Shown here: in pieces, positions 3,655-37,725 of the stretch | How the letters are laid out: every line of letters starts with the position of its first letter | How positions within the stretch are numbered: position 1 is the first letter of the stretch | DNA from: Escherichia phage vB_EcoP_LNA3 | Length of the DNA: 39,586 nt | Sequence record: MZ311862.1 | Reading direction: 5' to 3' (one strand) | Made by a program: the position numbers and the translations under genes | The notes under the pieces: model-generated | What the model saw: only the letters and a program-made list of their open reading frames with translations | Database searches by the model: none | What the model was told of the DNA's origin: nothing

Positions 3655-5937
3655 ATGGCTAGTAATATTGAATCAGCTCTGGCTAATCGGACTATGGGTC
3701 GCGGCAGAGCGCCGGGTAAAACTATCGCCGTCAACTATCAAGCAGCCAACGTTCAGGCTCCGACTGGGGACTCCGGTCTGGCTCGTGCGTTAACCAACTT
3801 CGTTGAGTCTGGGACTGGATTGTACAAGCAGTTCAAGGACGAGGAGAAGACCAGAGCTGACGAGCGGTCTAACGAGATTATCCGTAAACTGACACCTCAG
3901 CAAAGACGTGAGGCTATCCAGAACGGCACATTGCTGTATCAGGATGACCCTTACGCTATGGAAGCACTTCGAGTCAAGACTGGTCGTAATGCTGCCTTTG
4001 CTGTAGACGACGAGATTAACGTTAAGATTCAGAACGGTGAGTTCCGTACACGTCAGGACATGGAAGAGTATCGCCACCAGCGACTTCAGGACGCCGCTAA
4101 GTCCTATGCTGAAGAGGCGGGTATTAACCCTACAGACGAGTTCTTCCAGCGTGGGTTCAACGATAACATCACAGACCGAAACATCGCTATCTATGGGTCT
4201 TTCAATAAGTATTTCAGCAAGCAGTCTGAAGAGACAGCAATGTTGAACACTCGTATTGAGATGAACTCATTCCTGAACGATGGCGACCTGATGCGTTCAC
4301 CTGAGTCTGGCAAGACATTCATGGCCTACCTTCGGGATGGATTGACGACTGCTGCTATACCTTCGGACCAGAGAGCACGAGAGGTCATCACCCAGACGGT
4401 CCGTGACGCAATCCAGAAGTCAGGAGGCTCAAACTTCCTACAGCAAGTCCGTGGCGAGCGTATCACCCTTAACGGTGTTGACGCTACCATCGAAGAGATT
4501 GTAGGACCTGACGTCTTCAATGCTGCTATGGTTGAGGCCCAAGGTACTGAGTATAAACTGGTGGCTAAGTATCAGGAAGACTTGTCGTTAGGCGTTCAGT
4601 CTGCGATTCTTCAGGATGACCCAACCATCGGTCTGGCCCAGATTCAGAAACTCAAGGAGCAGAACAACCTGCTTCAGCCGGGTGAAGAACTAACGCCTCA
4701 GCGTCAGATGCTTATTAATGCCGAAGCCAGCTTACTGGAAGCTGTCAAGCGTAAGTCCGCTGAACAGGCTAAGGAGAACACTAAGTTAATCCAGACCCAG
4801 AATAAGCAACTGGTCATTGACCAAGTTTATCATCGACGTCTGGCTGGGGACAACGTGTCCACCAACTATGAGGACCTTCCGGTCTCTGAAGCTACAGGAG
4901 AGTTCAAGCGTTCAGACATGAACAACTATGCGTCTGCCAAGCTACAGCAGATTGACCAGATGGACATCCCTGAGGCTTCTAAGGACGCCCAGAAGGTTGC
5001 ATTGTTAAGGGCTGACACTAACAACGGTCCGTTCCGTAATGCCTTCCAGACTCTTACTCAGGACGCTGCTGGTGAGTGGCAGGCTGCGGTCATCCGTGGA
5101 CAGTACGACCCAGACAAGATGCAACGCTTCGAGTCTCTTCGTCGTGCCTACACTCAGGACCCTTCAAGTTTTGCTGCTCTGTATCCTGACCAAGCTCAGT
5201 TGTTCTCTACGTTCGACCAGATGGACAAGATTGGTCTGGACCCTCAGACGATGATTGAAGCTGATAAGCAAGCTGCAAGTCAAAGCAGTGAGATGCGCAT
5301 TGAGTCAGACAAGGCGTGGCAGGAGTTGAAGAACGACTCTCGGAATAAGGACCTTTCGCGTCTTCCTACGTCTCTGGACGCAAGTGCTCGTAAGGTCTGG
5401 GACTCATGGTACTATCGTACAGGTAACGCTGACGCTGCAACTCAGCAGACTCAACGCTGGCTGAATGAGAACACCGTAACGTTCCAGTCTGAAGGTTCTG
5501 ATGGTAAGTCAATCGGCATGGTGTCCAAGCACCAGCTTATGGTCGGGGATAACCCAGAGTCGTGGCAGGTTGGTCGAGACATTATCGACACCGCTCGTAA
5601 GCAGCTCATTAAGACCAACCCTTGGGTAGTGAACTCTCAGTTGTCCGTTGTTGAACAGAACGGCTCTATCTTCCTCCAAGACGCTACAGGGACTATTCGT
5701 ATTCGCTACGATAAAGAACTTGTAGGTAAACTCTACCGCGAACAACAGCAGAAGGCACAAGATGCCGCATACGCTCAGGCAGAACGTGACGCTAACAAGC
5801 GAGCGCGTATCGTCGGGACTAAAGCTGCTGGTGACAAACGTCGAGCTGACCGAGAGGCCAACATCGAGAAGCGCGGTGGGATGTACAATGACGTCTCACT
5901 GGAGGGTATCGCAAACACCTTAATCGGTAAGGAGTAA
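3655..5937 (+). CDS. internal virion protein C (gp15)
   Basis: 760-aa ORF at the gp15 position (T7 747 aa); strong Shine-Dalgarno. Confidence 0.85.
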   Translation: MASNIESALANRTMGRGRAPGKTIAVNYQAANVQAPTGDSGLARALTNFVESGTGLYKQFKDEEKTRADERSNEIIRKLTPQQRREAIQNGTLLYQDDPYAMEALRVKTGRNAAFAVDDEINVKIQNGEFRTRQDMEEYRHQRLQDAAKSYAEEAGINPTDEFFQRGFNDNITDRNIAIYGSFNKYFSKQSEETAMLNTRIEMNSFLNDGDLMRSPESGKTFMAYLRDGLTTAAIPSDQRAREVITQTVRDAIQKSGGSNFLQQVRGERITLNGVDATIEEIVGPDVFNAAMVEAQGTEYKLVAKYQEDLSLGVQSAILQDDPTIGLAQIQKLKEQNNLLQPGEELTPQRQMLINAEASLLEAVKRKSAEQAKENTKLIQTQNKQLVIDQVYHRRLAGDNVSTNYEDLPVSEATGEFKRSDMNNYASAKLQQIDQMDIPEASKDAQKVALLRADTNNGPFRNAFQTLTQDAAGEWQAAVIRGQYDPDKMQRFESLRRAYTQDPSSFAALYPDQAQLFSTFDQMDKIGLDPQTMIEADKQAASQSSEMRIESDKAWQELKNDSRNKDLSRLPTSLDASARKVWDSWYYRTGNADAATQQTQRWLNENTVTFQSEGSDGKSIGMVSKHQLMVGDNPESWQVGRDIIDTARKQLIKTNPWVVNSQLSVVEQNGSIFLQDATGTIRIRYDKELVGKLYREQQQKAQDAAYAQAERDANKRARIVGTKAAGDKRRADREANIEKRGGMYNDVSLEGIANTLIGKE

Positions 5938-13417: not shown

Positions 13418-13677
13418 CGCAGATGGACTTAGAGAAGTTCCTATTGATGCTGGATACTGAACGTGCTCGACTCATGCTGCAAGACTTACGTGACGACTCT
13501 AAGCGTTCACCTCAGCTCTACAACGCCATTGAGAAGCTGCTTGCTCGTCACAACTTTGTGTTAAGTAAGGTGTCTGTGGACGAGAAGACGCTGGCTGATA
13601 TGGAGGCCCTGAACGCAGAGTACGATAAGGTGCTTTCAGCGACTGAGGATAATGACACAGGGTATGGTGTTCAATAA
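13414..13677 (+). CDS. terminase small subunit (gp18)
   Basis: 87 aa with the conserved RSPQLYNAIEKLLARH motif; start overlaps the holin stop (ATGA). Confidence 0.85.
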   Translation: MTQMDLEKFLLMLDTERARLMLQDLRDDSKRSPQLYNAIEKLLARHNFVLSKVSVDEKTLADMEALNAEYDKVLSATEDNDTGYGVQ

Positions 13678-13682
13678 GTGTT

Positions 13683-13726
13683 AGACTCAAGGTCATTACT
13701 ATATGTAGTGGCCTTTATGGTTAACA
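13683..13726 (+). ncRNA. conserved hairpin element, candidate RNase III site (T7 R18.5 position)
   Basis: TAGACTCAAGGTCAT-loop-GTGGCCTTTATGGTTAAC; the AAGGTCAT/GTGGCCTT stem recurs at 22245 and 29603 with different loops. Confidence 0.45.
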
Positions 13727-13778
13727 CTAACTAGTGGAGGCGACTCTGCGTGAAATCTGATAAACCGGGAGGGCAACT

Positions 13779-16853: not shown

Positions 16854-16870
16854 ATCTGTATCAGACCATA

Positions 16871-16950
16871 AGTCACTAACCTACAGTCTCACTAACCTAC
16901 AGTCTCACTAACCTACAGTCTCACTAACCTACAGTCTCACTAACCTACAG
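16871..16950 (+). repeat. tandem array of 16-bp units TCTCACTAACCTACAG (four perfect copies plus one near-copy)
   Basis: Perfect units at 16887, 16903, 16919 and 16935; degenerate CCTACAG-containing units continue to about 16995 and also occur at 16600..16640. Confidence 0.9.
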
Positions 16951-17103
16951 TCTCAACCATAAGACACCAACACCTACAGTCATAGACCTACAGTTACTAG
17001 ACACAAAGCTATAGACTTAAGGTCAAAGACATGTTAGTCAAAGACTATATCCTATTACACCATGGGGCCGACGATAGCTTAATCAATATTATTTCAAATT
17101 ACC

Positions 17104-17794: not shown

Positions 17795-18298
17795 ATGGAA
17801 CGTAATGCTAACGCATACTATGAGCTGCTGGCTGCAACCGTTGAGGCATTTATCGAGCGTATTCAGTACGACCACCTGACTCAAGATGATGACTACAGCG
17901 ATGCGCTGCATGAGGTCGTAGACGGTCAGGTTCCCCACTATTACCACGAGATTTTTACGGTGATGGCTGCTGATGGTATAGACCACGAGTTCGAAGACTC
18001 TGGGATGATGCCTGAAACCAAGGACGTAACGCGTATACTACAAGCTCGCATCTATGAGGCGCTTTATAACGATGTGTCTAATAGCTTGGATGTAGTCTGG
18101 TTTGAGGCTGAAGAGGCAGACGAAGAGGATGAATATTGGGTAGTTGACGCTAAAACAGGCGCAATAATTGTGCAAGCTGTAGCTCTTGAGGTCGCTACTG
18201 CATGTGCCAAGGTCAACTATGCAATAGGTCGCCACCTGAAGGTGGAAGACATCAATGATAACGTAGTGTTCGACCCTGCGGCTGAGGACTGCGAGTGA
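17795..18298 (+). CDS. ocr: Ocr-like anti-restriction protein (gene 0.3 homologue) with C-terminal extension
   Basis: [45 protein letters not shown] matches the T7 Ocr core; 167 aa versus 117 in T7. Confidence 0.8.
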
Positions 18299-22225: not shown

Positions 22226-22243
22226 TAAACTATCACTATAGGA
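22226..22243 (+). promoter_or_regulatory. phage RNA polymerase promoter (phi1.1 position)
   Basis: TAAACTATCACTATAGGA; by analogy with T7 this region may hold the primary replication origin. Confidence 0.75.
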
Positions 22244-22244
22244 T

Positions 22245-22288
22245 TAGACTCAAGGTCATGACTCAAAGTCGTGGCCTTCATGATTAAC
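22245..22288 (+). ncRNA. conserved hairpin element, candidate RNase III site (T7 R1.1 position)
   Basis: TAGACTCAAGGTCAT-GACTCAAAGTC-GTGGCCTTCATGATTAAC; same stem as the elements at 13683 and 29603. Confidence 0.45.
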
Positions 22289-22316
22289 CCTAACTCACTC
22301 AATCAGGAGCCACACC

Positions 22317-25115: not shown

Positions 25116-25829
25116 ATGGCTAAAGAGCAACTGAAGACTTTCACCACTCCGGTAGCTGGTATAGTTGAGCCTTACGCATGGCTGAACAAAGCAGACACCA
25201 AGTTTAATGAGCGTGGTGAGCATAAGGTTAACCTGACATTCGACCTGAGCAACCCGAAGGTCCGTAAGATGATTGATGTCTTACAGAAGATTCACGACGA
25301 TGCGTATGCGAAAGCACTCGCAGACCACGAGAAGAACCCACCTCAGGTTCAGCGTGGCAAGAAGCCTATCGAGCCGCGTGAAGGCGACATGCCGTGGATT
25401 GAGAATGGTGACGGCACTGTTACCCTTAAGTTTAAATGCTTTGCGTCTTACCTTAAAGACGGCAAGTCCGAGCCTATCGTATTACGGTTCTACGACACCG
25501 ATGCTAAGTTAATCCGTGACGTCCCGAATATTGGCGCTGGCTCAAAGCTGAAGGTCAAGTTTAAAGTCCTGCCATTCAAGTGGAACGCTGCTACTGGTGC
25601 AAGCGTTAAGCTCCAGCTTGAGTCCTGCCTTCTGGTAGAACTGAAGGAGTGGAAAGGTGATGGTGCTGGTGGCGATGGTGGCTGGGGTGATGATGAAGAC
25701 CTCGGTACTGGTTACAAAGCGTCAACCGATGGTGACTTCGGTGACGATGACTTCGGTGACGATGACTTCGGTGACGATGGTTCCGAAGGTGGTGACGACT
25801 CCAGCTCTGGTGGAGATTACGACTTCTAA
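25116..25829 (+). CDS. single-stranded DNA-binding protein (gp2.5)
   Basis: 237 aa with an acidic C-terminal tail ending in Phe (...GGDYDF), as in T7 gp2.5. Confidence 0.9.
   Translation: MAKEQLKTFTTPVAGIVEPYAWLNKADTKFNERGEHKVNLTFDLSNPKVRKMIDVLQKIHDDAYAKALADHEKNPPQVQRGKKPIEPREGDMPWIENGDGTVTLKFKCFASYLKDGKSEPIVLRFYDTDAKLIRDVPNIGAGSKLKVKFKVLPFKWNAATGASVKLQLESCLLVELKEWKGDGAGGDGGWGDDEDLGTGYKASTDGDFGDDDFGDDDFGDDGSEGGDDSSSGGDYDF
25734..25778 (+). repeat. three in-frame tandem copies of a 15-bp unit (GACTTCGGTGACGAT) within the SSB acidic tail
   Basis: Perfect tandem copies encoding the tripled DFGDD motif in the gp2.5 C-terminal tail. Confidence 0.9.
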
Positions 25830-26281
25830 TGGCCCAATGGTCTGCAAAACGGGGGCACTCTGTGGGTGCCTACCGCTCTGGACTTGAAGCCAAGAACCAG
25901 CAGTGGCTGGAACAGAACGGCGTCAAAGCGGAGTACGAAAGCCATTATATCAACTATGTGATTCCGGCTTCCGACCACAAGTACACACCAGACTTTATCC
26001 TTCCAAACGGTATCATCGTGGAGACCAAAGGAATCTTCGCAGTTGAAGACCGTAAGAAGCACCTTCTGGTACGAGAACAGCACCCAGAGTTAGACATCCG
26101 GTTCGTGTTCTCGAGTTCCCGCTCCAAGTTATACAAAGGGTCTCCGACCACGTATGGCGCATGGTGCGAAAAGAACGGCTTTAAATTTGCCGATAAATTC
26201 ATCCCGGTTGAGTGGCTGCGAGAGGCGACTGTACGTCTGCCTTCAGGTATACTCATCCCCAAGAAGAAAGGAGTTAAGTGA
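25829..26281 (+). CDS. endonuclease I (Holliday junction resolvase, gp3)
   Basis: 150 aa; YVIPASDHKYTPDFILPNGIIVETKG...RKKHLLVREQHPELDIRFVFSSSRSKLYKGSPTTYG closely matches T7 endonuclease I. Confidence 0.92.
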   Translation: MAQWSAKRGHSVGAYRSGLEAKNQQWLEQNGVKAEYESHYINYVIPASDHKYTPDFILPNGIIVETKGIFAVEDRKKHLLVREQHPELDIRFVFSSSRSKLYKGSPTTYGAWCEKNGFKFADKFIPVEWLREATVRLPSGILIPKKKGVK

Positions 26282-26736
26282 TGACTACCTGTAAAGACCT
26301 TGAAGTTGGAACACGTTACAGATTCTCAAAGAACACCCTGTTGAATAACCCCAGCTTCACTGATGCTGTTTTCGAAAAGCGAGAAGACCATAGCGTAATT
26401 GTGGAGAAGGGGTGGCATCCTGAGGATTATATCGGTGAGACTACCAGCTGGAATGGTCACGAGACCTACAGTGTAGAAGTTGTTGACCAGCCTCAAGTCC
26501 TGCCAGCTTCGAGCGTACCTCCTGTGACTGTGAAGCGTGAAGTCCTGACAATCGACAAGATTGGTGTAGGCCAGACGTTCATCGTCCATGGAAAGCCTGA
26601 AGAAGTTTACGTGAAGATTAGCAACTCACACGTCTTCAACCATAAGCGTCTCCAGATGCACACCACGGACGCACAACGCTTCACCCAGCACCTGAATCTA
26701 GTGGTCGTAGAATTGGTGGTGTACAATGGTAAGTAA
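26281..26736 (+). CDS. hypothetical protein between endonuclease I and lysozyme
   Basis: 151 aa from ATG 26281 (AAGAAAGGAG upstream; TGATG overlap with the gp3 stop). T7 has no gene here. Confidence 0.6.
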   Translation: MTTCKDLEVGTRYRFSKNTLLNNPSFTDAVFEKREDHSVIVEKGWHPEDYIGETTSWNGHETYSVEVVDQPQVLPASSVPPVTVKREVLTIDKIGVGQTFIVHGKPEEVYVKISNSHVFNHKRLQMHTTDAQRFTQHLNLVVVELVVYNGK

Positions 26737-27208: not shown

Positions 27209-27424
27209 ATGATTAAACTTATCGAATTTCTAGGTCGTCTGGTGGTGCGTGGTTATCGTCGTGCTGCGGTACTGGAACGAAAGGTAGAAAAGAAGACTGC
27301 TGATGGCGCGGCTGATGCTGCTGCTCTGGCTGACAAGCTGACCATCGCGTCACTGGAAGCTGGCATGAAGGCTCGTCAGGCTGATACCAAAGCTGACAAG
27401 TTGTCTCAGTTCTTCAAAGACTAA
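27209..27424 (+). CDS. hypothetical protein
   Basis: 71-aa Ala/Lys-rich ORF with AAGGAG Shine-Dalgarno. Confidence 0.5.
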   Translation: MIKLIEFLGRLVVRGYRRAAVLERKVEKKTADGAADAAALADKLTIASLEAGMKARQADTKADKLSQFFKD

Positions 27425-27440
27425 ACTATCACCTTAGGGA
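27422..27440 (+). promoter_or_regulatory. degenerate phage-promoter-like sequence (phi3.8/phi4 position)
   Basis: TAAACTATCACCTTAGGGA differs from the consensus at -4 and -3; function uncertain. Confidence 0.35.
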
Positions 27441-29383: not shown

Positions 29384-29434
29384 ATGTCAATGCCCTGAGT
29401 GCGATTGGAAGTCACCATACGGAGGACACCATTA

Positions 29435-29599
29435 GTGTTTAAGAAACTTAAAGCTCGATACCATCGGTTCATGTACAAATGGTGGAGCGATGAAGCAACC
29501 TGCCTGTCGAACATTCTGGGAGACCAGCGGTTCAACTCTGCGGCATGGAAGAAAGCCAACCGGAAGTTCATGTATCACTTCTTGCGTACAGACTTCTAG
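29435..29599 (+). CDS. hypothetical small protein (gene 4.3/4.5 position)
   Basis: 54 aa from GTG 29435, 8 nt after GGAGGA; the track's 29399 start is also non-ATG with no Shine-Dalgarno. Confidence 0.4.
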   Translation: MFKKLKARYHRFMYKWWSDEATCLSNILGDQRFNSAAWKKANRKFMYHFLRTDF

Positions 29600-29602
29600 G
29601 TC

Positions 29603-29645
29603 TAGACTCAAGGTCATTCATAGCGAGTGGCCTTTATGATTAGAC
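29603..29645 (+). ncRNA. conserved hairpin element, candidate RNase III site (T7 R4.7 position)
   Basis: TAGACTCAAGGTCAT-TCATAGCGA-GTGGCCTTTATGATTAGAC; third copy of the stem. Confidence 0.45.
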
Positions 29646-29663
29646 TAAAGCGGAGGATTAACC

Positions 29664-31835
29664 ATGTTTGACCTTAAGAGTATCTGGGGTTCTGACATCG
29701 AGACCAACGGTCTCCTTGATACAGTCTCCCAGTTTCACTGTGGGGTCCTGATTAACGCCGAGTCGAATGAGACCCTTAAGTATGGGGTAGCTCCGATGGT
29801 CGGTATCGTCGGCGGCTTCAAAGAGTATGTTCATAAAGTGGAAGAGATTGCCGCATCACCTGATGGTATGCTGGTATTCCATAACGGTATCAACTATGAC
29901 GTCCCGGCTATAGACAAGCTGAAGCGTTTGTACTTTGGGAAACGCTTTAACTTCCCGAAACATAAGATGATTGATACCTTGGTGCTGGGACGCTTGATGT
30001 ATCCAAACATTAAGTTCTCAGACATGGGCGCGGTGAAAGCTGGTCGTCTGCCACCTAAGATGATGGGACGCCAGTCTCTTGAGGCTTGGGGCTATCGTCT
30101 CGGTGAGATGAAAGGTGAGTACAAACACGATTACGTTGCCAAGTGCAAGGCTGAAGGTATCGAATATAAGGCTGGGGACGAATGGTTGTTCCCGTCTCAG
30201 GAGATGCTGGACTATAACGTTCAAGACGTTGTGGTCACACTGGCGTTGTTCAAGAAGTTCCTGACTGACAAGTATTACTTCCAGTCTGAACAGTTCGCTT
30301 TCGACCAGATTTATGCGTTGCGTCTGGAACATGATGCTGCGTGGACCTGTGCGAAGATGGAACGTAACGGCTATCCGATGAACACCGAGATGGTCGAAGG
30401 TTTATATCGTGAACTCACCGTCAAACGTGCAGAGCTGCTGGACAAGCTGCGTTCGACTTTCGGCAGCTGGTACGCACCAAAGGGAGGCAAGGAGTTCTTC
30501 AAGCACCCACGGACAGGCAAGGACCTTCCGAAGTATCCGCGCGTCGTGTATCCTAAGGTCGGGTCAGTATTCAAGAAGCCGAAGAACAAAGCTCAACGCT
30601 TAGGTCTGGAGCCTTGCGAGTTCGACTCACGAGACACGATGGAAGGAGCACCGTTCACGCCAATCACTTACGTTGAGTTTAATCCGGGGAGCGGAGACCA
30701 CTTAGCGAAAGTCTTGATGGAGCGTGGTTGGGAGCCTGTTGACTTCACTGACACTGGGAAACCTGTAGTCGATGACGAGACGTTGGAACACGTTAAGTTA
30801 CCAGACGCAGAGGCTCAGGCTTGCGTAGAGCTGGTCCGTGAGTATCTGGTAGTCCAGAAGCGTATCGGACAGGCTGCTGAAGGTAAGAACGCATGGTTGA
30901 AACTTGTAGGTCCAGACGGGCGTATGCACGGTTCAATCAACCCTTGTGGAGCAGTAACCGGACGTGCGACACATAGTTCACCAAACATGGCTCAGGTCCC
31001 GGCTAACGGTGCTCCATATGGTGAGACTTGCCGTGGTGCTTTCGGTGCAGCGTGGAACAAGAAGGACGGTAAGCCAGACCCTTGGATTCAAGTAGGCGTG
31101 GATGCTTCAGGTCTTGAGCTTCGTTGTCTGGGGAACCGAGCGGCTCCGTTTGATGGTGGTGCCTATGCGAAGACTGTGGTAGAAGGTGACATCCACTGGG
31201 CCAACGCAGTAAACGCTGGGTTAGCACCTAACGTCCCACGCGATAAGTCGAACCACGACCATGATGCTTTCCGTAACAACGCTAAGACGTTCATCTATGC
31301 GTTCCTGTATGGTGCAGGGGCCGCTAAGATTGGACTGATAGTAGGCGGTGGTAAGAAGGAAGGTTCAGCTCTCATGAAGAAATTCATTGAGGGTACACCA
31401 GCTATTAAAGACCTCAGGGAAGCTGTGCGTAATACGTTAATATCAGACTCTAAGTGGGTGGACGGAGAGAACATCGTCAAGTGGAAACGCCGTTGGTTGC
31501 GTGGACTTGATGGTCGTCGTATCCACATCCGGTCTCCGCACTCAGCACTTAACGCCTTACTTCAAGGTGATGGTGCGGTAGTATGTAAGCACTGGATTGT
31601 CGAGACTGAACGTATGCTCGAAGAGGCAGGGTATGTTCACGGCTGGGAAGGTGACTTTGCGTACATGGCTTGGGTGCATGACGAATTGCAGATTGCGTGT
31701 CGTACTCAGGAGATTGCCGAAGAAGTCGTAAAGATTGCTCAACTTGCTATGCGTAAGGTGGGTGAGTTCTATAACTTTAAATGTGTCATTGATACCGAAG
31801 GTAAGATTGGACCAACGTGGAAGGAGTGTCACTAA
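29664..31835 (+). CDS. DNA polymerase (gp5, family A)
   Basis: 723 aa collinear with T7 DNA polymerase (SDIETNGLL...FHCGV, ...SLEAWGYRLGEMKGEYK..., ending GPTWKECH). Confidence 0.96.
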   Translation: MFDLKSIWGSDIETNGLLDTVSQFHCGVLINAESNETLKYGVAPMVGIVGGFKEYVHKVEEIAASPDGMLVFHNGINYDVPAIDKLKRLYFGKRFNFPKHKMIDTLVLGRLMYPNIKFSDMGAVKAGRLPPKMMGRQSLEAWGYRLGEMKGEYKHDYVAKCKAEGIEYKAGDEWLFPSQEMLDYNVQDVVVTLALFKKFLTDKYYFQSEQFAFDQIYALRLEHDAAWTCAKMERNGYPMNTEMVEGLYRELTVKRAELLDKLRSTFGSWYAPKGGKEFFKHPRTGKDLPKYPRVVYPKVGSVFKKPKNKAQRLGLEPCEFDSRDTMEGAPFTPITYVEFNPGSGDHLAKVLMERGWEPVDFTDTGKPVVDDETLEHVKLPDAEAQACVELVREYLVVQKRIGQAAEGKNAWLKLVGPDGRMHGSINPCGAVTGRATHSSPNMAQVPANGAPYGETCRGAFGAAWNKKDGKPDPWIQVGVDASGLELRCLGNRAAPFDGGAYAKTVVEGDIHWANAVNAGLAPNVPRDKSNHDHDAFRNNAKTFIYAFLYGAGAAKIGLIVGGGKKEGSALMKKFIEGTPAIKDLREAVRNTLISDSKWVDGENIVKWKRRWLRGLDGRRIHIRSPHSALNALLQGDGAVVCKHWIVETERMLEEAGYVHGWEGDFAYMAWVHDELQIACRTQEIAEEVVKIAQLAMRKVGEFYNFKCVIDTEGKIGPTWKECH

Positions 31836-31993
31836 TGGCTATTACTTATAGCGAGCAGGAGGTCAAAGACCTGATGCGGTCAGCTTGGTGGTGTGGACAC
31901 GAGGAGTCTCGTTATAGTCCAAACCTCAGTGGACAGTGCAGTCGAGACATTCGTGAAATTCTGAAAGAACATAACGAAGAAGGGGAAGACTAA
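31835..31993 (+). CDS. hypothetical small protein (gene 5.3 position)
   Basis: 52-aa ORF starting in a TAATGG overlap with the gp5 stop; shares the 16-bp start context ACTAATGGCTATTACT with the next gene; below the ORF-track cutoff. Confidence 0.45.
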   Translation: MAITYSEQEVKDLMRSAWWCGHEESRYSPNLSGQCSRDIREILKEHNEEGED

Positions 31994-32277
31994 TGGCTAT
32001 TACTAAACGTATTCGTGTAAGTTTCGACCTGAAGCTGGTTGTCAACTCAAAGGAAGAAGAGACCATGTGTCGCCAACTGGCTGAGTTGACTAAAGCCTAC
32101 GCTGAGGGTGAGAAGCTGGATGGACTTCAGTTGGTTCTGGTCAAAGCAGCAATCGAGTCAGGCCCTGAGTCTGCCCTTGAGATTGCCGCCAAGAAGACCA
32201 TCAAGGAGGAGCTGGTAGACGCCTTTGATGATGGTAAGTTCGGAGTATCCAACCTGCGATTCGAGGTCAAGCAATGA
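31993..32277 (+). CDS. gp5.5-like protein (T7 gp5.5 binds host H-NS)
   Basis: 94 aa; MAITKRIRVSFDL matches the T7 gp5.5 N-terminus (MAMTKRFKVSFDV). Confidence 0.7.
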   Translation: MAITKRIRVSFDLKLVVNSKEEETMCRQLAELTKAYAEGEKLDGLQLVLVKAAIESGPESALEIAAKKTIKEELVDAFDDGKFGVSNLRFEVKQ

Positions 32278-32483
32278 GTGAATACTTACGGGTCCTAGCG
32301 GCCCTTAAGTCCTGCCCGAAGACCTTCCAGTCCAACTATGTGCGCAACAACGCTGCACTGGTGGCTGAGGCTGCGAGTCGTGGACATCTAAGCTGCCTGT
32401 CTATGGATGGGCGTAACAACGGTGCGTGGGAGATTACCGCTGCTGGCACCAAGTTCCTGAACCAACATGGAGGCTGTCTATGA
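32274..32483 (+). CDS. gp5.7-like protein
   Basis: 69 aa (same as T7 gp5.7) with LKSCPKTFQSNYVRNNAALVAEAASRGH...GAWEITAAGTKFL near-identical to T7. Confidence 0.85.
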   Translation: MSEYLRVLAALKSCPKTFQSNYVRNNAALVAEAASRGHLSCLSMDGRNNGAWEITAAGTKFLNQHGGCL

Positions 32484-32935
32484 AGATACCTGAAAGTCTG
32501 AAAGAGCTGGTCCTTGACATAGGTGAGTGTGAGTGCGAGAAGGAGCACCGCAAGTACGCTGAGTTCTACGCATCTTGGTCATACACCTTGACAGAGAATG
32601 ACGTTGAGTCATATACCGAGTCTCCCGCTGAGGCCTATGAGTGGCGTCAGTTCATCGGGCTGACCATCGTAGCCAGTGGTATGTGGAATGACAGCTACGG
32701 TTCAGAGGTAAATGACTGGGGAGTATATCGCCAGGTTGAGAAGGAGACTGAGATGTCTTCAAACTTCTGGAACCTGATGTCCCACCTCAACTCAGATGAC
32801 AACGACATGGCACATGAGTTCGCAAACAAATGGCTGAAGCCTGAGGTGACTCTGGAACGTATTGAGGAGCCTAAAGTTCCCTTGATTCCATATGCAGTCG
32901 CTATGGCTACAGGAGGTCTGGACGATGGGTGCTGA
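32480..32935 (+). CDS. acidic hypothetical protein (gene 5.9 position, about three times larger)
   Basis: 151 aa from ATG 32480 (GGAGG upstream, ATGA overlap with the gp5.7 stop); Asp/Glu-rich. Confidence 0.55.
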   Translation: MKIPESLKELVLDIGECECEKEHRKYAEFYASWSYTLTENDVESYTESPAEAYEWRQFIGLTIVASGMWNDSYGSEVNDWGVYRQVEKETEMSSNFWNLMSHLNSDDNDMAHEFANKWLKPEVTLERIEEPKVPLIPYAVAMATGGLDDGC

Positions 32936-33794
32936 GAAGAAGATAGCTCTTGTTCTTGATGGCGATTACCTAGTATTCTCTTCTATGGCTGCTGCCGAGG
33001 ACGAGACAGACTGGGGTGATGACATCTGGACCCTTATCTGCGACCACGAGAAGGCTCGCCGTATCCTTGAGAACACCATCGCTGAAATCGTTAAGAAGCG
33101 CAAGGCGTGGAAAGACGCTAAGATTGTGATGTGCTTTACTGATGATAACAACTGGCGTAAGGACGTTTTGCCTACCTATAAGGCTAACCGTAAGGGTTCT
33201 CGCAAGCCTGTAGGTTACAAGAAGTTCGTAGACGAAGTGATGGATGATCCACGGTTCAACAGCTTCCTGCGTCCAACGCTTGAGGGCGATGATTGTATGG
33301 GTATCATCGGGACCAGACCTCAGATTGTCGGATGCGACCATGCGGTGCTGGTGTCCTGCGATAAGGACTTCAAGACCATCCCGAACTGTGAGTTCTTCTG
33401 GTTAACCACTGGTGAAATCCTGAGTCATACGACTTCCGAGGCAGACTACTGGCACATGGAGCAGACCATCAAGGGTGACACTACAGATGGCTACGGCGGT
33501 ATTCCGGGGATGGGTGAGGACACCACTCGTGCATTCCTTGACGAACCGTACTACTTCGTGCAGGAGAGCCGCGAGCTTAAGACTGGCAAGAACAAAGGCC
33601 AGATTAAGACTGAGTGGAAGAAGTATCCGAAGCGTGAAGACATGACGCTGTGGGACTGCATGGTTACACTGGCTGCTAAGGCTGGCATGACCGAGGAGGA
33701 ACTTCTGGTCCAAGCTCAGGTCGCTCGTATTTGTCGAGCATCTGACTATGACCCTAAGTCCAAGGAGGTCATCCTATGGACACCATCCATGTAA
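32925..33794 (+). CDS. 5'-3' exonuclease (gp6)
   Basis: 289 aa from ATG 32925 (AGGAGG upstream); CDHEKARRILEN, NWRKDVLPTYKANRK, LEGDDCMGIIG and SCDKDFKTIPNCEF match T7 gp6. Confidence 0.92.
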   Translation: MGAEKKIALVLDGDYLVFSSMAAAEDETDWGDDIWTLICDHEKARRILENTIAEIVKKRKAWKDAKIVMCFTDDNNWRKDVLPTYKANRKGSRKPVGYKKFVDEVMDDPRFNSFLRPTLEGDDCMGIIGTRPQIVGCDHAVLVSCDKDFKTIPNCEFFWLTTGEILSHTTSEADYWHMEQTIKGDTTDGYGGIPGMGEDTTRAFLDEPYYFVQESRELKTGKNKGQIKTEWKKYPKREDMTLWDCMVTLAAKAGMTEEELLVQAQVARICRASDYDPKSKEVILWTPSM

Positions 33795-33868
33795 TTTACT
33801 GGGTCGGACTTCTTGCCCTTTACTGCATGTACAAGTGGTTCGGGTCGAACAACCGCCCTAAACACTGA
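33776..33868 (+). CDS. small hydrophobic protein (gene 6.3 position)
   Basis: 30-aa ORF with AAGGAGG 7 nt upstream, overlapping the gp6 3' end. Confidence 0.35.
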   Translation: MDTIHVIYWVGLLALYCMYKWFGSNNRPKH

Positions 33869-33922
33869 GTCTAGCCGATAGTCATATCCTATCAATCCAA
33901 CAGTCATCCATAGGTGAAACAC

Positions 33923-33941
33923 TAAACTATCACTATAGGGA
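33923..33941 (+). promoter_or_regulatory. phage RNA polymerase promoter (phi6.5 position)
   Basis: TAAACTATCACTATAGGGA, exact consensus. Confidence 0.8.
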
Positions 33942-34004
33942 CTTTAGGACCTAAGATATGACTATAAGATAGACTTTAGTCTTAACTTAAAGAGGAGATT
34001 CAAG

Positions 34005-34277
34005 ATGGCTCTTAATGCTATTGAAAACGTTGTTAAGCAGTTACAGGAAGAAAGACTCGATGTCCCTAACATCTCCCAGTCTGCTATCCAGTTCCTGCAC
34101 GTATTGTTCAACGCAAGCTACGCTGAGAAGATGGGAGTTATCAGTCTCCTCAAGCAGCAAGGCTACAGCGATGCGTTCATTGCCGGGTTCATCAAGGGTC
34201 TCCAGTATTGTTCTGACACTCTCGACTCTGCGATTTCTATGCGTCGTGAGCTGAAAGATACCGTTCAGTTTGATTAA
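34005..34277 (+). CDS. hypothetical protein (gene 6.5 position)
   Basis: 90-aa ORF with AAGAGGAG Shine-Dalgarno. Confidence 0.6.
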   Translation: MALNAIENVVKQLQEERLDVPNISQSAIQFLHVLFNASYAEKMGVISLLKQQGYSDAFIAGFIKGLQYCSDTLDSAISMRRELKDTVQFD

Positions 34278-36840: not shown

Positions 36841-37725
36841 ATGTCCCAATCAGTTTATGCCGAGTTCGGCGTTAGCCCTAATGCAATCACTGGCTCCGTT
36901 GAGGACCTTAACGAACACCAACAGTCTATGCTGGAGAAGGACGTAGCTGTCCGTGATGGCGATGACGCCATTACCTTCAAGCAACTGGAAGCCGAGCAGG
37001 AAGAGGCGACCGAAGAAGACGAGAACGTAGAAGAGACTGAGGGTGATGAAGACAACGAGTCCGATGACGAAGAGTCTGAGACCGATGATGATCAGCCTGA
37101 GTTCATCGAACTTGGTGATGCACCGAAAGAGCTGACTGAAAGTGTCACCGCTCTGGATGAAAACGAAGCTGCATTTGACGACATGGTGTCTTCTGCTGTA
37201 GAAGCTGGCAAGGTCACTGCTGATGAAATTACCGCTATCAAGGCTGAATACGCCAAGGACGGTAAGCTGTCTGACGCATCCTACGCTAAGTTGCAGGAAG
37301 CAGGTTACACCAAGCGCTTCGTAGATTCGTTTGTCCGTGGTCAGGAAGCTCTGGCTGAACAGTATGCCGCTGGTGTGGTTCGCTACGCTGGTGGTGCTGA
37401 ACAGTTTAATCGCATCCTGTCACACCTTGAGTCCAACGACCCGTCAACTCGTGAAGCATTGGAAGCTGCCATCGTTCGTAAGGACATTGCGACTACCAAA
37501 GCTCTGCTGAATCTGGCTGGCAAGACTCTGGGTAAAGCTGTGGGTGTTAAACCTCAGCGTACCATCACCACTCAGGCTAAACCTGTGGTCGCACCTAAGG
37601 CTCCTCAGACCGAAGCATTCAGCTCCAAGGCTGACATGATTAAGGCTATGAGTGACCCGCGATACCTGCGTGACGCTAAGTACACTATGGAAGTCCGCGC
37701 TAAGGTAGCTGCCTCAAGCCTGTAG
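36841..37725 (+). CDS. capsid assembly scaffolding protein (gp9)
   Basis: 294 aa from ATG 36841 (AAAGGAGAG upstream), highly acidic, C-terminal ...MIKAMSDPRY as in T7 gp9; the track's 36808 start lacks a Shine-Dalgarno. Confidence 0.9.
   Translation: MSQSVYAEFGVSPNAITGSVEDLNEHQQSMLEKDVAVRDGDDAITFKQLEAEQEEATEEDENVEETEGDEDNESDDEESETDDDQPEFIELGDAPKELTESVTALDENEAAFDDMVSSAVEAGKVTADEITAIKAEYAKDGKLSDASYAKLQEAGYTKRFVDSFVRGQEALAEQYAAGVVRYAGGAEQFNRILSHLESNDPSTREALEAAIVRKDIATTKALLNLAGKTLGKAVGVKPQRTITTQAKPVVAPKAPQTEAFSSKADMIKAMSDPRYLRDAKYTMEVRAKVAASSL

Follow-up and report, generated by a model that had tools for sequence, protein, structure and literature searches.

What does a T7-group phage gain by carrying an acidic protein of 151 amino acids (aa) at the position where T7 encodes its much smaller RecBCD inhibitor, gp5.9? 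The 39,586-nucleotide (nt) genome of Escherichia phage vB_EcoP_LNA3 (sequence record MZ311862.1, here called the window in its full length) raises this question at the junction between its gp5.7 and gene 6 homologues, which in T7 are separated by the 52-aa gp5.9, as the retrieved T7 genes bear out. A preliminary description of the locus, made from the sequence, had suggested an enlarged or unrelated DNA mimic directed at RecBCD or another nuclease. Our analysis indicates that the protein is unrelated to the DNA-mimic domain of gp5.9 and belongs to an uncharacterised acidic phage family; it also reveals a short module shared with a gp5.9 subfamily and genomic associations that make the protein a credible candidate inhibitor of host DNA-end processing.

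The open reading frame (ORF; ATG 32480, TGA 32933-32935) is a real, functional gene under purifying selection, because 54 phage records carry it at 88-99% nucleotide identity (Escherichia, Salmonella, Shigella and Enterobacter phages, annotated in every case as 'hypothetical protein') and because the ratio of nonsynonymous to synonymous substitution rates (dN/dS) was 0.13-0.26 in six pairwise comparisons with relatives. The described richness in Asp and Glu is confirmed by a charge calculation (30 Asp/Glu against 12 Lys/Arg, net charge -18, isoelectric point (pI) 4.34, with six Trp), and the only ORFs on the plus strand that are equally or more acidic are the ocr-like gene at 17795-18298 and the ORF at 36841-37725 that matches T7 gp9. 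This acidity extends to all 57 aligned family members (pI 4.15-4.95, net charge -9 to -19), even at 22-30% identity, and a high, conserved negative charge is a trait of DNA mimics as a class. Helix 1 (E5/E9/D13) has conserved acidic columns, and further ones fall at E18/E20/E22 and D71/E76/D79; the i/i+4/i+8 row on helix 1 is only suggestive of a DNA-mimic surface. Across the 57-member alignment, G67 and G74 alone are invariant, K25 and H102 are nearly so, and no conservation of a catalytic type was seen.

The idea of an enlarged gp5.9 did not survive comparison. BLASTP of the 151-aa protein against T7 gp5.9 gave E=8.5, neither PF25708 (Phage_T7_Gp5_9, at E<=1) nor phrog_9014 matched it, and hhalign of the family against a gp5.9 alignment comprising T7-type and phiYeO3-12/Berlinvirus-type sequences returned a probability of 0.2%. 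A likeness seen by eye between 'FWNLMSHLNSDDND' and the gp5.9 segment 'VWNDIQGYIDSLEREND' was rejected on the same hhalign result (0.2%, E=0.3), in which only the start of that segment was aligned (EMSSNFWNLMS against TIPRDVWNDIQ). T7 gp5.9 (PF25708, phrog_9014), a DNA-mimic RecBCD inhibitor, is like the 151-aa protein in its gp5.7/gene 6 slot, its translational coupling, its acidity (pI about 4) and its status as a dispensable accessory gene; it differs in length, in the lack of any sequence or profile similarity and in architecture, being a parallel coiled-coil dimer (PMC9836394) where a globular alpha/beta fold is predicted here. The single long helix that typifies the gp5.9 family, whose proteins have about 50-90 aa, is likewise missing from the AlphaFold2 (AF2) model, and slot position and acidity are what the two have in common. 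Taken together, these comparisons indicate that the 151-aa protein is not an enlarged gp5.9. By description only, it resembles Ocr, lambda Gam and Ugi, which are also small, strongly acidic, phage-encoded and non-enzymatic (named in part from PMC9836394).

The family to which the protein does belong is phrog_4382, of unknown function, which its residues 1-132 match over profile positions 6-129 of 130. Close searches recovered 33 clusters among 5.8 billion proteins and remote searches 25 matches among 1.84 billion representatives, one of which, the 1148-aa repeat protein P0053, looks spurious; a pattern-based scan of limited sensitivity found no relatives of the family or of its module in 185,579 bacterial and archaeal genomes. 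Searches of Pfam, NCBIfam, PADLOC and PDB sequences with both the protein and the family profile returned noise only (Nmad4, E=0.18; SLT_L; ANT(4'), E=0.026; PDC-M02B, E=0.0077, all rejected), and a different known domain, the finding that the preliminary description had named as grounds for abandoning its idea, was found in none of Pfam, NCBIfam and PDB. Literature searches on the motif strings and on phrog_4382 found no mention in the library covered, and the motifs were not present in the supplementary files of accessory-gene screening papers. To judge from these searches, PHROG 4382 is a small, always acidic family restricted to phage or phage-sized sequences, and it is catalogued so far only under that entry, with function unknown.

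AF2 modelling with the 57-sequence alignment (predicted local distance difference test (pLDDT) 82.5 overall and ~89 for residues 1-130, with the same topology as an earlier model) predicts five helices and five strands forming a globular alpha/beta domain, a fold that, as modelled, is without a match to any solved structure. The N-terminal domain, which bears the motifs EHRKY and GMWxDSYG, comprises a helix at 5-14, strands at 16-19 and 28-36, helices at 39-45 and 49-56 and a beta-hairpin at 62-88; it is followed by helices at 91-102 and 109-118, a strand at 122-127 and a disordered tail at 131-151. This tail is explained by its last ~10 codons (AMATGGLDDGC), which are the 3' junction containing the Shine-Dalgarno sequence (32912-32916) and ATG (32925) of gene 6, so that most of the tail is the initiation region of gene 6 in translation; this junction DNA is also present at a locus where the slot occupant is unrelated (L025). 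The acidic, Phe-ending tail of relatives had been considered as a mimic of the tails by which gp2.5 and gp4 bind T7 DNA polymerase, an idea that was rejected because the tail is a translated ribosome-binding site and start of gene 6, is common to unrelated occupants and is unconserved across the family.

A first link to the gp5.9 family lies in the two predicted helices that follow the N-terminal domain, which form a 27-residue helix-turn-helix module that we call LMSHLN and which AF2 packs onto the N-domain sheet with high confidence. Aligned by hhalign with the gp5.9-subfamily alignment, the module scored a probability of 96.9% (E=1.6e-10, 44% identity over 27 columns), and it also matched phrog_6163 (residues 92-117, E=0.0076) and a custom hidden Markov model (HMM; E=1.6e-8). 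Its counterpart is residues 2-28 of small proteins such as the 66-aa protein of Cronobacter phage GW1 (P0080, locus L018) and gp27 of Pectobacterium phage PP74 (P0079, locus L090), both of which belong to PF25708 (E=4e-15 and 1e-8, scores that exceed the gathering threshold) and occupy the 5.7/6 slot; Erwinia phage Y2 gp58 is of the same type. A search with the module profile retrieved 114 proteins, nearly all of them PF25708, and nearly all of the 29 that were read carry the module. These proteins share with ours the pattern F-x-x-L-M-S-H-L-N-x-E-D-N-x-M-A-x-E-F, and some share the slot, but their module stands at the N-terminus, ahead of the gp5.9 domain (…FLDALxAAGVDNW…), whereas in the 151-aa protein it comes after an unrelated domain and no gp5.9 domain is present. 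The C-terminal placement is found in the 151-aa family only. Further fusions of FDxLMSHLNxEENxMAEEFR to other acidic domains were seen in proteins of 110-121 aa (P0179-P0189; L119 3001-3363; for example '...LYVLVSDGGDGSYYPHYTM...GCDGDGFHYDT...') on phage contigs of about 96-99 kb. The module is thus promiscuous, combined with several different small acidic phage domains.

A second link comes from the Chaseviridae. In phages PP101, 4HA13, Y2 and SSEM1 and at two metagenomic loci, a homologue of the N-terminal domain overlaps the 3' end of a module-carrying PF25708 gene by 8-35 nt, an arrangement found at 6/6 loci examined from a group of 34 phage records. These homologues (130-139 aa; family A5 HMM E from 1e-10 to 5e-4 over positions 6-92), among them Y2 gp59, PP101 orf50 and 4HA13 gp50, are alike in the N-terminal domain and differ in lacking the LMSHLN module, in having a short beta-type C-terminus and in being separate genes paired with a gp5.9-family gene. 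In two records the PF25708 neighbour is annotated 'host recBCD nuclease inhibitor'. This conserved pair (L122-L124, L121, L118, L120) sits between dUTPase and terminase genes, and most records are without such an annotation. Separate neighbours in one lineage and a fused domain plus module in another constitute an association of the Rosetta-stone type.

A third line of evidence is the company that the family keeps. On three contigs of 15-95 kb (L008/L009/L114), the gene of a distant (type-B) homologue overlaps the stop codon of a gp6-like exonuclease gene (phrog_107), in the reverse of the T7-like order, the homologue being downstream of the exonuclease, and a 34%-identical homologue stands directly before gene 6 in a distant T7-like lineage. 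Elsewhere the family occurs after the DNA polymerase gene in Privateervirus, in the nrdD/nrdG gap in Suspvirus and after dUTPase in Chaseviridae. The Ounavirinae (Suspvirus, Mooglevirus) arrangement is exemplified by Escherichia phage SUSP2 (L005 3474-3872).

The slot itself behaves as an exchangeable cassette. Across 80 loci collected with gp5.7 as the query, gp5.7 and gp6 lie as little as 3 nt (an empty slot) and as much as 584 nt apart, also among loci whose gp5.7 is 100% identical, and between near-identical flanks (loci L011-L090) the slot is either empty or filled by one of at least five unrelated small-protein families, with cassette boundaries that coincide with translation-initiation regions. 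Among 26 K1F-like loci, eight are empty, eight hold a phrog_2251-like protein, seven the 151-aa family, two a phrog_18166-like protein and one a gp5.9-family protein; in other Studiervirinae the slot has the same range of contents and, in addition, a basic protein of 54-58 aa. The phrog_18166 occupant weakly matches phrog_2294, labelled 'ribonucleotide reductase' (E=8e-8). When two loci that carry the family (L001 and L029) are compared with the window, synonymous divergence (dS) is 0.30 in the cassette and 0.02-0.05 in the flanks, which shows that recombination has exchanged the cassette. Variable and replaced genes between conserved flanks are also the hallmark of accessory regions that serve as anti-defence hotspots. 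The neighbouring gp5.5 homologue (31993-32277) is mosaic as well, with dN of 0.64-0.77 in L001, L026 and L029 beside a gp5.7 that is 98-100% identical, which points to a putative second exchangeable cassette.

The window corresponds to a circularly permuted genome of a K1F-like T7-group phage, running from a T7 gene 12 homologue at 167 to gene 11 at its end, with T7 homologues of gp1, 1.3, 2, 2.5, 3, 3.5, 4, 5, 5.7, 6 and 8-19, and with T7 gp0.3 matched in its central part only. The coupling of the gene to gp5.7 and gp6 that was noted at the outset is reflected in its junctions (Table 1): an ATGA overlap upstream and, downstream, an 11-nt overlap with gene 6, whose start is most likely ATG 32925 (GGAGG at 32912-32916), in agreement with the curated annotation of phage Pipis. 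Annotation and a comparison of junctions across loci show that the counterpart of ATG 32480 is the start of gene 6 in K1F. Since the phage RNA polymerase promoters on either side lie at 27422 and 33923-33941 and no terminator-like site was found in 29400-34100, the gene falls within the gene 4-to-6 DNA-metabolism transcription unit, and it appears to be cotranscribed with the DNA-metabolism genes and translationally coupled to both neighbours.

Table 1. Positions in the window of the acidic gene, its parts and its surroundings.
Feature	Position	Strand	Basis or remark
Coding sequence of the 151-aa acidic protein (PHROG 4382 family)	32480..32935, stop included	+	ORF listing; phrog_4382 E=5.6e-46; dN/dS
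N-terminal acidic alpha/beta domain, residues 1-88	32480..32743	+	AF2 models, alignments, N-domain-only homologues
Tandem duplication of 6 nt, GAGTGT (32525-32530) GAGTGC (32531-32536), giving 'ECEC' of GECECEKEH	32525..32536	+	Lineage-specific
Helix-turn-helix LMSHLN module, residues 91-117 (EMSSNFWNLMSHLNSDDNDMAHEFANK)	32750..32830	+	Homologous to N-terminal module of PF25708 subfamily
Disordered C-terminal tail, residues 131-151	32870..32932	+	pLDDT <50 in both models
Upstream junction: GGAGG 32469-32473 within final gp5.7 codons; ATGA start/stop overlap 32480-32483	32469..32483	+	
gp5.7 homologue, upstream flank of slot	32274..32483	+	77% identity to T7 gp5.7; phrog_1334
Gene 6 5'-3' exonuclease, downstream flank	32925..33794	+	phrog_107 E=1.1e-80; PF02739; 51% identity to T7 gp6
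Nearest upstream phage RNA polymerase promoter, consensus TAAACTATCACTATAGGRA	27422..27440	+	11 matches in window against 0.01 expected

Considering these observations together, we tentatively propose that the protein is a non-enzymatic, acidic, stoichiometric binder of a host DNA-end-processing or defence complex, with RecBCD as the most likely target. Lambda gam adjoins bet and exo. More generally, RecBCD inhibitors are small acidic dimers encoded next to the phage's own recombination genes, the P22 abc genes being an example (PMC9836394); this habit of placement is the reason why RecBCD is regarded as the likeliest target. In the proposed mechanism, an exchangeable cassette between gp5.7 and the gene 6 exonuclease would encode a non-enzymatic acidic accessory protein of three parts, namely the predicted alpha/beta domain, the LMSHLN module packed on it and the disordered tail derived from the gene 6 initiation region. 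Its stoichiometric binding to a host DNA-end-processing or DNA-binding defence complex, perhaps RecBCD, would protect linear phage DNA and replication and recombination intermediates while the phage gp6 exonuclease works, so that the protein would be a functional analogue or partner of gp5.9 and not a homologue of the gp5.9 DNA-mimic coiled coil. Among the genes of the window are homologues of ocr, of a gp1.2-like dGTPase inhibitor and of gp2, gp5.5 and gp5.7, and no other gp5.9-like protein was found elsewhere in it, which leaves the anti-RecBCD role otherwise vacant. Of the two alternatives raised in the preliminary description, the enlarged gp5.9 falls away, and an acidic protein unrelated to gp5.9 and aimed at RecBCD or another nuclease is possible and made more plausible by the shared module, the Chaseviridae pair, the type-B homologues that overlap an exonuclease gene and the family-wide acidity.

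Several observations weigh against this proposal. The part of gp5.9 that contacts RecBCD, the acidic coiled coil that constitutes the PF25708 domain, is missing from the 151-aa protein, and strong acidity is nothing unusual in the early and middle proteins of phages. The coexistence of the N-domain protein with a gp5.9-family protein in Chaseviridae speaks against their being redundant; the N-domain may act on a different target or cooperatively. In Ounavirinae, nrdD and nrdG flank the homologue, and no recombination gene is nearby. Although the 151-aa and gp5.9 families were together at 0 of the 86 T7-like loci covered by this comparison, about one such locus would be expected by chance, and the absence of co-occurrence is not statistically significant. 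Finally, the slot is empty in K1F as well as at the eight K1F-like loci counted above, which implies a dispensable function. Chi-site content was considered as a proxy for RecBCD exposure and dropped: the window has seven Chi octamers (GCTGGTGG; at 4074, 7017, 13833, 23843, 25665, 37387 and 39455) where dinucleotide shuffles lead one to expect 1.5 and synonymous-codon shuffles 3.7 (P about 0.02), and this count is uninformative because T7 possesses gp5.9 and likewise has seven sites, all of them on a single strand.

It is possible, and only slightly less likely than the proposal above, that the protein is instead an accessory inhibitor or decoy with a target other than RecBCD, whether another host or defence DNA-binding complex or a guard that senses gp5.9-type RecBCD inhibition, or that it serves as a docking partner for the LMSHLN hairpin in gp5.9-like proteins. 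Such a role would fit the Chaseviridae, where translational coupling ties the N-domain protein to a gp5.9-family protein that is present as well, so that simple redundancy between them does not apply, and the AF2 packing of the hairpin on the N-domain would allow for such a contact in trans in phages with the gene pair. It is also in keeping with the hypervariable slot, which resembles the anti-defence accessory regions of 10.1101/2023.04.06.535777. Moreover, gp5.9 sets off retron Ec48 and type III Sir2-HerA (PMC9836394, PMC13434337) and also inhibits MukBEF (PMC7617805); sensing by guards together with MukBEF inhibition would select for alternative or additional proteins, and the triggering of Ec48 and Sir2-HerA would provide a rationale for gene turnover in the slot. 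On the other hand, no candidate target was identified, the PADLOC match is insignificant, and LMSHLN-type gp5.9 proteins occur in T7-like phages without an N-domain protein (L018, L090). A special form of partnership, in which the N-domain and gp5.9 families constitute a two-part system whose N-domain binds the LMSHLN hairpin in trans in Chaseviridae and in cis here, appears improbable on the present comparisons.

An accessory factor of phage DNA metabolism, for instance a modulator of a gp6-type exonuclease or of the replisome with no anti-host activity, is unlikely. This explanation draws on the two gene orders in which the family adjoins a phrog_107 exonuclease gene, preceding it in T7-like phages and following it in L008/L009/L114, on the occurrence of homologues always in replication or nucleotide-metabolism modules and on the translational coupling to gene 6; however, K1F gp6, 96.5% identical to the window gp6, functions with an empty slot, unrelated alternative proteins occupy the same position, and the gene evolves at several times the rate of gp6 in 5/6 comparisons (dN 0.04-0.07 against 0.003-0.03).

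The preliminary description had also pointed to a Cys/Glu cluster near the N-terminus, GECECEKEH, which is present in the sequence but without conserved significance. The duplication that creates its second Glu-Cys is confined to the five closest records (matches of 455-456 nt, against 449-450 nt in the others), all 17 aligned relatives have G-ECEKEH or a variant of it, so that the window protein carries a two-residue insertion, and the Cys is swapped for F, W, L or R in relatives; owing to this duplication and the variable Cys, the cluster is neither a conserved metal-binding site nor typical of the family. The idea of a metal-binding protein or an enzyme working through the cluster, suggested by the look of the motif in this single sequence, is effectively refuted by the alignment, in which the Cys is replaced and only the two glycines (with K25 and H102 nearly so) are invariant, and Pfam and PDB are unmatched.

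Further features of the window were observed alongside this locus. The ocr-like anti-restriction protein (17795-18298; phrog_2568, E=1.7e-53) has 167 aa against 117 aa in T7, a net charge of -30 and a pI of 4.08, and only T7 residues 17-90 align with it (62% identity). The non-coding DNA that follows gene 19 contains, at 16857-16955, some five copies of a 16-nt unit (TCACTAACCTACAGTC) arranged head to tail; these are probably part of the genome-end or concatemer-junction region, which is why the window is read as a permuted genome. At the 3' end of the gene 2.5 single-stranded DNA-binding protein homologue (25728-25787), 15-nt tandem repeats (GATGACTTCGGTGAC, translated DDFGD) look like a repeat-expanded version of its acidic, Phe-containing tail. 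Three intergenic copies of a conserved element, TAGACTCAAGGTCAT...GTGGCCTTTATGrTTA (13676-13732, 22239-22295 and 29597-29642), may be putative RNase III-type processing sites. Between the gene 3 and 3.5 homologues, at a position that is empty in T7, another 151-aa ORF (26281-26736; phrog_16385 and phrog_15211, unknown function) is a further accessory insertion, and at the gene 5.3 position (31817-31993) a 52-58-aa acidic protein (phrog_20928, unknown function) stands in place of T7 gp5.3, where phage Pipis has an HNH endonuclease.

For the biology of these phages, the analysis adds an acidic family, so far uncharacterised, whose predicted fold is unmatched and which genomic evidence of three kinds connects with the gp5.9 family, as well as a promiscuous 27-residue module and a hypervariable cassette slot at the T7-like 5.7/6 junction. 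To our knowledge, RecBCD is a central hub of bacterial immunity, and the few phage inhibitors of it that are known (Gam, gp5.9, Abc2) have unrelated structures. Should the improbable two-part system prove true, the N-domain would re-target anti-RecBCD activity or neutralise guards such as retron Ec48, Sir2-HerA or OLD-like systems, and the 151-aa protein would represent a novel type of 'anti-guard' or adaptor protein, also new in its fold. For the K1-specific phages of this group, which are under development for therapy, knowing the counter-defence cassette of an isolate could help explain differences in host range.

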